Origin: Escherichia coli
Lineage (GTDB): Bacteria > Pseudomonadota > Gammaproteobacteria > Enterobacterales > Enterobacteriaceae
Assembly: GCF_041248615.1 (NCBI RefSeq)
Contig: NZ_CP158426.1
Length of the DNA stretch: 64,000 nt
Direction: 5' to 3' (one strand)
Both the position numbers and the translations under genes were made by a program. Shown here piece by piece: positions 13,477-16,255 of this stretch; the first letter of the stretch is position 1; each line of letters opens with the position of its first letter. Below the pieces are notes generated by a model, which did no database searches, was not told the origin of the DNA, and worked only from the letters and a program-made list of their open reading frames with translations.

Positions 13477-15102
13477 ATGAATATTTTCACAGAGGCTGCA
13501 AAACTCGAAGAGCAAAATTGTCCGTTTGCTATGGCGCAAATTGTTGATAGCCGAGGCTCGACTCCCCGCCATTCTGCACAAATGTTAGTGCGCGCCGATG
13601 GTTCTATCGTCGGTACAATTGGTGGCGGAATGGTTGAGCGGAAGGTGATTGAAGAGTCGCTTCAGGCATTGCAGGAACGTAAGCCGCGATTATTCCATGG
13701 ACGTATGGCTCGTAACGGTGCGGATGCTGTCGGGTCAGATTGTGGAGGTGCAATGTCAGTATTTATCAGCGTCCATGGTATGCGTCCACGTCTGGTGTTG
13801 ATTGGCGCGGGGCATGTCAACCGGGCGATAGCCCAGAGTGCGGCGCTATTAGGATTTGATATTGCCGTTGCTGATATTTATCGCGAAAGCCTCAATCCTG
13901 AACTATTCCCACCATCAACCACGCTTCTCCATGCTGAGTCGTTTGGTGCGGCAGTGGAAGCACTGGATATTCGCCCTGATAATTTTGTCCTGATTGCCAC
14001 GAATAATCAGGATCGTGAAGCCCTCGACAAACTCATTGAACAGCCCATTGCATGGTTGGGGTTGCTGGCAAGTCGTCGCAAGGTTCAGCTTTTCCTGCGT
14101 CAATTGCGTGAGAAAGGCGTGGCTGAAGAACATATTGCCCGTTTACATGCGCCCGTTGGTTACAACATAGGTGCGGAAACGCCGCAGGAGATCGCCATCA
14201 GCGTGCTGGCAGAAATATTACAGGTGAAAAATAACGCGCCGGGTGGGCTGATGATGAAACCTTCTCATCCTTCCGGACACCAGCTGGTGGTGATTCGCGG
14301 TGCGGGAGATATCGCCAGTGGTGTGGCGCTACGTCTGTATCATGCGGGTTTTAAAGTGATCATGCTGGAAGTGGAAAAACCGACAGTGATTCGTTGTACC
14401 GTGGCGTTTGCCCAGGCCGTGTTCGATGGCGAAATGACGGTCGAAGGCGTCACTGCTCGCCTGGCAACCAGCTCTGCGGAAGCGATGAAACTTACCGAAC
14501 GCGGATTCATTCCTGTGATGGTAGATCCCGCCTGTTCATTGCTTGATGAACTGAAACCGCTTTGCGTGGTGGACGCTATTCTGGCGAAACAGAATTTGGG
14601 AACGCGGGCAGATATGGCACCAGTAACAATCGCGCTTGGGCCGGGCTTTACTGCTGGGAAGGATTGTCATGCGGTAATTGAAACAAATCGCGGGCACTGG
14701 CTCGGTCAGGTGATTTACTCTGGTTGTGCGCAGGAGAATACCGGTGTTCCTGGCAATATTATGGGGCATACCACCCGACGGGTGATCCGTGCTCCTGCTG
14801 CAGGCATTATGCGATCCAACGTGAAATTAGGCGATCTGGTGAAAGAGGGCGATGTGATTGCCTGGATTGGTGAGCATGAAATTAAAGCACCGTTGACGGG
14901 GATGGTGCGTGGCTTGTTGAACGACGGCCTGGCAGTGGTTGGTGGTTTTAAAATTGGTGATATCGATCCTCGTGGTGAAACCGCTGATTTCACCAGCGTT
15001 TCTGATAAAGCCCGGGCGATTGGCGGCGGCGTACTTGAGGCGTTAATGATGTTGATGCATCAGGGCGTGAAAGCGACAAAAGAAGTGCTGGAAGTGGCTT
15101 AA
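13477..15102 (+). CDS. yqeB: XdhC/CoxI-like accessory protein (YqeB family)
   Basis: 541-aa ORF with tandem XdhC-like domains and Rossmann-like LIGAGHV / VIRGAGDIASG segments. Confidence 0.8.
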   Translation: MNIFTEAAKLEEQNCPFAMAQIVDSRGSTPRHSAQMLVRADGSIVGTIGGGMVERKVIEESLQALQERKPRLFHGRMARNGADAVGSDCGGAMSVFISVHGMRPRLVLIGAGHVNRAIAQSAALLGFDIAVADIYRESLNPELFPPSTTLLHAESFGAAVEALDIRPDNFVLIATNNQDREALDKLIEQPIAWLGLLASRRKVQLFLRQLREKGVAEEHIARLHAPVGYNIGAETPQEIAISVLAEILQVKNNAPGGLMMKPSHPSGHQLVVIRGAGDIASGVALRLYHAGFKVIMLEVEKPTVIRCTVAFAQAVFDGEMTVEGVTARLATSSAEAMKLTERGFIPVMVDPACSLLDELKPLCVVDAILAKQNLGTRADMAPVTIALGPGFTAGKDCHAVIETNRGHWLGQVIYSGCAQENTGVPGNIMGHTTRRVIRAPAAGIMRSNVKLGDLVKEGDVIAWIGEHEIKAPLTGMVRGLLNDGLAVVGGFKIGDIDPRGETADFTSVSDKARAIGGGVLEALMMLMHQGVKATKEVLEVA

Positions 15103-15322
15103 ATGAAAATGGCCGGATGGTATTACCCACCCGGCCTGAGACTGATGACAAACGCCAAATTGCCTGATGCGCTACGCTTATCAGGCCTACAAGTGCATTG
15201 CAATCTATTGAATTTGCGATGTTTTGTAGGACGGATAAGGCGCTCGCGCCGCATCCGGCATCAACAAAGCGCACTTACTTGACAATCTTTGGCCGGATGG
15301 TATTACCCACCCGGCCTTTAAA
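15103..15322. repeat. REP/BIME-type palindromic repeats flanked by two copies of a 26-bp hairpin GGCCGGATGGTATTACCCACCCGGCC
   Basis: Identical 26-bp palindromic units at about 15111-15136 and 15291-15316; REP-like GCCTGATGCGCTACGCTTATCAGGCCTAC and GTAGGACGGATAAGGCGCTCGCGCCGCATCCGGCA between the convergent yqeB and yqeA. Confidence 0.7.
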
Positions 15323-16255
15323 TTACTGACAAATCACCGTTCCTGTTTTGCCTTCAATCCCTTCTTTCGCTTTGCTCAATACGGTAATCAGTGCTTCACG
15401 ACCTGCGCGAGAGCGAGCAAACGAGGCGGCAGCTTCCACTTTAGGCAGCATAGAACCTTTCGCAAAATGACCTTCTTCGATAAAGCGTTCAGCATCACTT
15501 AATGACAGGCGATCGAGCCACTGTTCATTCTCTTTACCGAAGTTAATGGCCACTTTTTCTACCGCAGTCAGAATGATCAGCATATCGGCATCAATCATTT
15601 CTGCTAAACGGGCGCTGGCCCAGTCTTTATCGATAACCGCGCTGGCACCACGCAGATGGTTACCTTCACGAATAACAGGGATACCACCACCGCCAACGGT
15701 GATCACCACCTGACCTGCATCTACCAGAGCTTTAACCGTTTCTTTTTCAATGATATCAACCGGTTTTGGCGAGGCAACAACACGGCGATAGCCGCGACCA
15801 GCATCTTCTTTCAGAGTGTAACCCTGTTTTGTCAGTTGCTCTGCTTCTTGCTCGGTAAAGAACGAACCGATCGGCTTGGTCGGGTTGAGGAATGCCGGAT
15901 CGTTAGCGTCGACTTCGACCTGAGTAACCAGCGTTGCTACAGGTTTATTAATGCCCCGAGAAAGCAGTTCTTCTCTTAAAGCGTTTTGTAGATCGTAACC
16001 AATATAACCCTGGCTTAATGCAACACAGACAGACATCGGCAGCATTGGCGAGTGCGCTTCAGTTTTTGCGGCAGCTTCAAAGGCCTGGTTAATCATGCCC
16101 ACCTGCGGCCCGTTACCATGAGTGACGATAACTTCATGTCCCTGGGCAATTAAATCAACAATTGCCTGAGAAGTAATTTTTACCGCTTTCATTTGCCCGG
16201 CCAGGTCATCGCCCAGCGCATTCCCGCCCAGGGCGAGAACAATTTTCTTACTCAT
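15323..16255 (-). CDS. yqeA: Carbamate kinase-like protein
   Basis: 310-aa ORF; N-terminal KIVLALGGNALG as in carbamate kinases. Confidence 0.85.
   Translation of the reverse strand: MSKKIVLALGGNALGDDLAGQMKAVKITSQAIVDLIAQGHEVIVTHGNGPQVGMINQAFEAAAKTEAHSPMLPMSVCVALSQGYIGYDLQNALREELLSRGINKPVATLVTQVEVDANDPAFLNPTKPIGSFFTEQEAEQLTKQGYTLKEDAGRGYRRVVASPKPVDIIEKETVKALVDAGQVVITVGGGGIPVIREGNHLRGASAVIDKDWASARLAEMIDADMLIILTAVEKVAINFGKENEQWLDRLSLSDAERFIEEGHFAKGSMLPKVEAAASFARSRAGREALITVLSKAKEGIEGKTGTVICQ

Follow-up and report, generated by a model that had tools for sequence, protein, structure and literature searches.

Between the convergent genes yqeB and yqeA of Escherichia coli, a BIME-1 element has very probably inserted into a two-way terminator and duplicated the hairpin of that terminator whole, and the same architecture recurs elsewhere. 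We regard this as the best overall explanation of a locus in which the element lies between two identical hairpins, while most genomes hold a single hairpin and no element. Knowledge of REP/BIME elements goes back about 40 years, and a sizeable part of the non-coding DNA of E. coli consists of them. Their mode of spread is still called unresolved (PMC8266576; preprint 10.64898/2026.03.23.713779).

The yqeB-yqeA spacer and its BIME-1 element

The locus was analysed within a window, which here means the whole 64-kb stretch of DNA. yqeB and yqeA are convergent and only one BIME-1 unit lies between their stop codons, so the element is extragenic and does not form a tandem array (Table 1). The original prediction of a REP/BIME element between these two genes is borne out by the gene coordinates and by two inverted REPs, one of Z1 type and one of Y type, within the 152 bp that separate the hairpin copies. 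It had also placed an identical 26-bp hairpin on each side of the REPs; the two copies are indeed identical and hairpin-forming, but the exact direct repeat, TGGCCGGATGGTATTACCCACCCGGCCT, is 28 nt long rather than 26. The window contains the 26-nt core twice, and 100 shuffles gave no occurrence with up to three mismatches allowed. The + strand fold of a single hairpin copy, at -16.7 kcal/mol, contains 9 pairs plus an A.C mismatch; the - strand fold, at -22.6 kcal/mol, contains 10 pairs, of which one is G.U. A terminator scan of the - strand gave a call at the left copy (15136..15111).

A long-range fold of the whole 236 nt, in which the two copies pair with each other (z-scores -5.7 and -6.6), was set aside as a by-product of the duplication. 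The copies pair because they are duplicated, and the fold gives no sign of a designed long-range structure.

Table 1 Features of the yqeB-yqeA spacer and its neighbours, in positions of the window
Feature	Position	Strand	Description and source
yqeB CDS, 541 aa, left neighbour	13477..15102	+	TAA stop codon at 15100-15102; ORF list and RefSeq annotation of identical DNA
A-rich tract ATGAAAA, 5' of the left hairpin	15103..15109		Read on the - strand, T-rich tail ATTTTCATTT of the putative yqeA terminator
Duplicated target hairpin, left copy, 28 nt	15110..15137		Stem GGCCGGATGG/CCACCCGGCC, loop TATTAC; sole copy in empty alleles
BIME-1 (RIP/RIB-type) element, 152 bp	15138..15289	+	Imperfect inverted ends GAGACTGATGAC...TTGACAATCT(T); missing, together with one hairpin, from about 3,520 E. 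coli genomes; end-to-end alignment with 40 other copies
BIME-1 left arm	15138..15162	+	Inverted repeat of the right arm; 80-99% conserved; consensus of 41 copies
Z1-type REP (palindromic unit) CCTGATGCGCTACGCTTATCAGGCCTAC	15163..15190	-	GTAG foot on the - strand; exact 28-mer match at at least 120 loci
L linker	15191..15225		IHF-like site at 15201-15213; 41-copy consensus; near-threshold Rfam ES036/CssrF match at 15183-15225
Y-type REP GTAGGACGGATAAGGCGCTCGCGCCGCATCCGGCA	15226..15260	+	Sequence, repeat search and consensus
BIME-1 right arm	15261..15289	+	Ends in CAATCT + T (consensus G at that last base)
Duplicated target hairpin, right copy	15290..15317		Identical to the left copy
T-rich tract TTAAATT, 3' of the right hairpin	15318..15324		Tail of the putative yqeB terminator; overlaps the yqeA stop codon; sequence
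yqeA CDS (carbamate kinase-like, arcC), right neighbour	15323..16255	-	Stop codon at 15323-15325

The 152 bp are a standard BIME-1 (RIP/RIB), comprised of a Z1 REP, an L linker with an IHF-like site, a Y REP and conserved inverted ends. This composition matches the published definition of BIME-1, namely z1 and y units, a long conserved L linker that often holds an IHF site, and occurrence as a single copy (PMC3333891); the lengths of the palindromic units and the length class behind the Z1 assignment follow PMC8266576. The window copy is an ordinary member, which shares with BIME-1 in general the inverted Z1 and Y units, the long linker, the form of a single unit of about 150 bp, the position at convergent 3' ends and the presence or absence among isolates. 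The flanking hairpins are the duplicated target and lie outside the element itself. The + strand reads GTAG at 15226-15229 and CTAC, the complement of GTAG, at 15187-15190. The L linker is conserved in all 41 copies compared below; its best candidate IHF site, ATTCAATAGATTG on the - strand, agrees with the consensus WATCAANNNNTTR at 12 of 13 positions.

An exact scan for the Z1 28-mer, with one genome per species, gave at least 120 loci, and E. albertii, a divergent Escherichia strain, Pseudocitrobacter faecalis and Citrobacter are among the matches listed; no further Z1 copy was found within the 64-kb window. Altogether, 41 full-length copies from several enterobacteria, the window's included, align end to end. 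In their consensus the arms outside the REPs are conserved like the REPs themselves (80-99%). The ends form imperfect inverted repeats that begin with GAGACTGATGACA and close with TGTCAGCAATCTG; GAGACTGATGACA and CAGATTGCTGACA agree at 10 of 13 positions, and this relation is conserved across copies. The Rfam search of this region of the window gave no separate RNA gene, only sub-threshold matches to the REP-derived families ES036/CssrF and naRNA4. ES036 (CssrF sRNA) matched the L linker on the - strand, at 15183-15225, with a score of 36.3 bits, just short of the 37.6 required, and the naRNA4 matches to the REPs were weak; it seems that BIME sequence is what both families model.

Additionally, the E. 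coli-type Z1 28-mer was seen on metagenome-assembled contigs labelled Oscillospiraceae, Bacteroides and Bacteroidales (L009, L036 and L087), which are most likely mis-binned enterobacterial DNA. Tandem arrays of three Z1 units were observed in E. albertii (L013, 7106-7428, period about 148 bp) and in Pseudocitrobacter faecalis (L056, 8870-9121, period 112 bp); such arrays are not typical of BIMEs and differ from BIME-1, which occurs as single units.

Occupied and empty alleles in E. coli

A search with an 821-bp query spanning the site, run against 5,426 complete E. coli genomes, gave two allele classes, one matching over the full length and the other with a locus exactly 180 bp shorter. A junction-specific query found the occupied allele in 1,648 of the 5,426 genomes (about 30%). 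A query with the hairpin by itself matched 6,813 places in 5,166 genomes, with a maximum of two per genome and at the yqeB-yqeA locus only; two copies are present in 1,647 of these genomes and one copy in about 3,520. The occupied allele is 180 bp longer because it holds the 152-bp element plus one extra complete 28-nt hairpin. Occupied alleles of unrelated strains contain the same 152 bp with scattered point differences only, which points to a single insertion event at yqeB-yqeA, and the occupied lineage includes both K-12 and BL21. In one occupied strain, E. coli MS14387 (L128), a 1-bp deletion is present in the left hairpin copy alone, so the hairpin copies can diverge after insertion.

In the empty alleles of WEM25 and E2348/69, the spacer reads TAA-ATGAAAA-(one hairpin)-TTAAATT and is followed by the yqeA stop codon, while in SCEC020022 one hairpin follows ATGAAAA and the T/A-rich tract is TAAAATT instead of TTAAATT. 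The hairpin of E2348/69 has a perfect stem (-21.4 and -23.2 kcal/mol). In about 337 empty genomes the hairpin is exactly of the K-12 type with the A.C mismatch, and an allele of this kind would have received the insertion. With a GC-rich stem-loop that is preceded by an A-rich tract and followed by a T-rich one, the empty allele takes the form of a putative two-way intrinsic terminator.

Most genomes have the empty state, which is also the one seen in the more divergent strains (flank identity 98-99%; the B2 strain E2348/69 is among them) and comes with several hairpin variants, and for these reasons parsimony places it first. The ancestral spacer is thereby identified as a compact, putative two-way intrinsic terminator, TAA-ATGAAAA-(28-nt hairpin)-TTAAATT.

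These alleles also bear on how the hairpins had first been read. The original prediction suggested a check of genomes for variation in copy number, and such variation is found, with the hairpin present once or twice per genome among the 5,426 complete genomes. The further claim that the hairpin is a unit of the REP/BIME family fails, as it is confined to the yqeB-yqeA locus with at most two copies per genome in 5,166 E. coli genomes; the 26-bp unit is unique to this site and stands outside the REP families. This restriction to one locus indicates a local terminator and not a REP-family unit. The duplication had been attributed to local repeat expansion or recombination, but the empty alleles hold one hairpin, which makes the second copy the footprint of a BIME-1 insertion. 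As to the proposed role as bidirectional terminators, the hairpins do have terminator form and the empty allele is putatively two-way, but neither copy in the occupied allele is two-way now.

Flanking repeats elsewhere and a proposed route of insertion

To place the locus among its relatives, we compared 45 nt on each side of the 41 full-length copies, with mismatched flank pairs as the control. The median best flank-repeat score was 11, against 5 in the mismatched pairs, and a score of at least 10 was reached by 21 of the 41 copies and by 0.4% of the control pairs. A few of the 41 copies, L055 and L101 for example, occupy orthologous loci in different species, which makes the independent events slightly fewer than the copies. 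The repeat adjoins the element in 19 copies, where it is 11-28 nt long (median 21), specific to its locus and in each case a GC-rich hairpin. Fourteen of these 19 repeats lie directly against the left end of the element, and 13 lie one extra base, usually G, from the right end; elsewhere the distance is at most 3 nt, with one outlier (L006). When the empty sites of the 19 copies were rebuilt, most showed an A-tract, a GC-rich hairpin and a T-tract in that order. In most of them the repeat boundaries are symmetric about the dyad within 1-3 nt, with offsets such as -6/-6, -5/-5, -3/-3, -2/-2 and +1/+1. The recurrent architecture is thus A-tract and hairpin, BIME-1, hairpin and T-tract, with a hairpin of its own at each locus. 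About half of the full-length copies have no clear flanking repeat; the repeats of these copies could have decayed since an old insertion, or the copies could have arisen by another route.

The architecture is illustrated by narP-ccmH, which reads aaaat-AGCCCGATGG..CATCGGGC-(BIME-1)-AGCCCGATGG..CCATCGGGC-ctcttttt, and by uspB-pitA, which reads aaaaaaa-GCGGGCCAGTAAACTGACCCGCTC-(BIME-1)-gaa-GCGGGCCAGCTGACCCGCTC-gttttgg. At narP-ccmH (L005 310-515, L133 and L135) the stems are identical and the loops differ at 4-5 positions (ATTTAT versus CATCA). A rare empty narP-ccmH allele with an ATTTA loop was seen in the O157:H7 strain TR01, and such a pre-existing loop allele is a partial explanation for the loop difference there. 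At uspB-pitA (L006 270-480 and L134) the left copy and the empty allele both have a 4-nt loop, TAAA, which is missing from the right copy, and the junction carries three extra bases, GAA. Simple fill-in does not predict the loop differences at narP-ccmH and uspB-pitA, and they count against the explanation that we prefer.

Two further observations concern the age of such repeats. In Pseudocitrobacter faecalis DSM 27453, several BIME-1 copies carry perfect hairpin repeats of 16-21 nt at both ends (L047, L049, L053 and L054), which suggests recent insertions there and offers a possible experimental system. At an orthologous locus in three genomes, one (L110) has the hairpin on both sides, while in the other two (L020 and L066) the left side is reduced to GAAG and the right hairpin is complete, from which it follows that one copy of the duplication can disappear later.

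Polymorphic loci give the most direct view of the target. Empty alleles with exactly one hairpin were found at all four polymorphic E. coli loci examined, namely yqeB-yqeA, rutG-ymdF, narP-ccmH and uspB-pitA; gudD-barA was tried as a polymorphic site and is occupied in all E. coli genomes, hence uninformative. At rutG-ymdF, K-12 holds a full BIME-1 in reversed orientation (alignment score 194 reverse versus 88 forward), and the divergent Escherichia strain SCPM-O-B-8794 holds one in forward orientation (216 versus 72). Both elements are enclosed by the same hairpin, CCGCCGGGGTTACC(C)GGCGGTG, which is exact on both sides in SCPM-O-B-8794 and has diverged at a few positions in the right copy of K-12; many E. 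coli strains are empty at this locus. Opposite orientations inside the same hairpin require two independent insertions into one terminator, and insertion in either orientation fits a target with two-fold symmetry. In E. coli strain 106 (L132), the rutG-ymdF locus is 68 bp shorter still (495 bp), with a shorter ymdF-like CDS.

Under the insertion explanation, the target would be the terminator palindrome itself, probably extruded as a hairpin or cruciform. Breaks and joins on both strands would fall symmetrically at the two feet of the hairpin and produce a 5' stagger of hairpin length; both 3' ends of BIME-1 would be joined to the breaks, and gap filling would then copy the hairpin on each side. 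The logic would be that of a transposon target-site duplication, but with a length (11-28 nt) set by structure. What is duplicated is an entire palindrome; the repeat length changes with palindrome size, the repeat boundaries are symmetric about the palindrome's centre, and the insert is accepted in both orientations. Symmetric breaks at both hairpin feet are the simplest reading of these features, and the cutting of an extruded cruciform at its base would give exactly such a geometry. The staggered-cut chemistry and the extruded-hairpin target are our inference. More generally, BIME-1 may integrate specifically into intrinsic-terminator palindromes, with symmetric breaks at the feet that duplicate the hairpin (11-28 nt); that this rule is both correct and new is a tentative proposal, plausible without being probable.

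Among the alternatives, transposition of the IS200/IS605 type through RAYT/TnpA-REP survives best, although we consider it unlikely. TnpA-REP is, to our knowledge, the sole enzyme so far linked to REP mobility. BIME-1 resembles the REPIN/RAYT and IS200/IS605 systems in its two inverted REP hairpins with a GTAG foot, in being non-autonomous and in its proposed mobilisation in trans. REPs of this kind are bound by TnpA-REP, which also cuts and rejoins the single-stranded DNA next to them (PMC3333891; PMC8266576), and the 3' foot of the yqeB-yqeA hairpin, GGCC^T, resembles its cleavage site. However, IS200/IS605-type transposition makes no target duplication (PMC2817692), whereas a hairpin of 11-28 nt is duplicated at 19 BIME-1 copies and one of 28 nt at this locus. 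Likewise, TnpA-REP requires C^T at the cleavage point (PMC3333891), whereas most target junctions read A^A, A^T or T^T and lie in A/T tracts; the C^T rule was also tried as a general fit to the target junctions and rejected, as it fits only the 3' foot at yqeB-yqeA. The conserved ends of BIME-1 are inverted repeats that lie about 25-29 nt outside the REPs, and this suggests symmetric processing of both ends, against a route that acts around the REPs.

Deletion is less likely again, and we judge it distinctly improbable as a general account. It takes the two-hairpin allele as the older one and derives the empty alleles by RecA-independent slippage or recombination between the 28-nt repeats, a precise 'excision'. 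The abstract of a 1997 paper by Bachellier and colleagues reportedly speaks of 'excisions of a whole BIME-1'. Exact 28-nt repeats at a distance of 180 bp are a good substrate, and in K-12 short direct repeats are documented to undergo deletion independently of RecA (PMC5426353). Presence and absence of BIME-1 among isolates has been reported as well (PMC1187871), and the empty allele of WEM25, whose flanks are 100% identical, could just as well have arisen secondarily by precise deletion. Against this, deletion does not account for the origin of a duplicated, locus-specific hairpin on both sides of a dispersed element, and it runs counter to the empty alleles being the majority, in the more divergent backgrounds and with several hairpin variants. 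The rutG-ymdF hairpin with BIME-1 in both orientations, moreover, needs insertions. Some individual empty alleles may be secondary deletions.

We give very little weight to replication template switching, in which a fork stalled at the hairpin would move to a BIME-1 donor and return upstream of the hairpin with the aid of microhomology. The sequence after the right hairpin, TTAAATTACTGACAAAT (3' end of yqeA, 15318-15334), resembles the left end of BIME-1, GAGACTGATGACAAAC (15138-15153), and BLAST extends through TTAAATTACTGACAAAT in empty alleles with 94% identity over 83 nt; the resemblance may be chance, or microhomology that helped the insertion. The boundaries of BIME-1 are constant at unrelated loci, where template switching should leave variable junctions, and the 41-copy flank comparison showed no similar flank resemblance at other loci.

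Finally, the idea that the hairpins form a dispersed repeat family, such as a REP/BIME flanking motif, or stem from local expansion or recombination can be practically dismissed: the copies are identical and lie beside REPs, but their confinement to yqeB-yqeA refutes a family, other BIME-1 copies bear different, locus-specific hairpins, and local expansion is contradicted by the one copy retained in empty alleles.

Transcription, related systems and significance

The insertion of BIME-1 into a terminator would leave its mark on both transcripts. In the occupied allele the left copy keeps its T-rich tail for the - strand (yqeA) only, and the right copy keeps its tail for the + strand (yqeB) only; the hairpin as read on the + strand has the A.C mismatch and a mixed tail, TTTAAATT. 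Two-way Rho-independent terminators are like the empty allele, whereas the window allele consists of two one-way halves 152 bp apart. The hairpin nearer to each gene is now followed by the element and by no U-tract, so both transcripts should read through BIME-1. The yqeA transcript would end at the far hairpin with the tail ATTTTCATTT, and the yqeB transcript at its own far hairpin with TTTAAATT. Termination is therefore predicted to be kept in both directions, with BIME-1 placed within both 3' untranslated regions. The E. coli strains with the insertion, 30% of those surveyed, are predicted to have longer, overlapping 3' untranslated regions. The survival of termination after an insert of about 150 bp would explain both the location of BIME-1 at the 3' ends of convergent transcription units and its tolerance there. 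REPs are described as acting locally on termination and mRNA decay (preprint 10.64898/2026.03.23.713779).

The footprint has partial counterparts in other systems. Bacterial MITEs are like BIME-1 in size (about 150 bp), in their imperfect inverted ends, in being flanked on both sides by direct repeats of the target and in lacking coding capacity, but their duplications are short and of fixed length, whereas those of BIME-1 range from 11 to 28 nt and follow the size of the palindromic hairpin. We know of no parent insertion sequence with BIME-1 ends. In spacer integration by Cas1-Cas2, two staggered transfers take place at the borders of a partly palindromic repeat of about 28 bp and gap filling duplicates the repeat, with the participation of IHF in E. 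coli. The likeness to CRISPR repeat duplication is an analogy only, since BIME-1 has no array, leader or cas dependence, and its insert is a fixed 152 bp as against a 33-bp spacer.

BIME-1, its K-12 copy and its presence or absence among isolates are already known (PMC1187871, citing the 1997 paper by Bachellier and colleagues). In the literature searched, outside which the key papers of the 1990s lie, we found no description of a terminator-hairpin duplication at BIME-1, and PMC3333891, the main work on BIME mobility, makes no mention of 'duplication' or 'direct repeat'. Flanking repeats may already have been noticed in older papers, and the hairpin-duplication footprint is probably under-described.

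The object itself is ordinary, and its value lies in the mechanistic footprint that it exposes, a clue to how BIME-1 inserts. This footprint defines a target, two-way terminators, together with a geometry of breaks, and thereby makes the spread of BIMEs experimentally approachable. If previously undescribed, it would be the first in vivo constraint on REP/BIME spread, and it argues against a simple RAYT route of the IS200/IS605 type.
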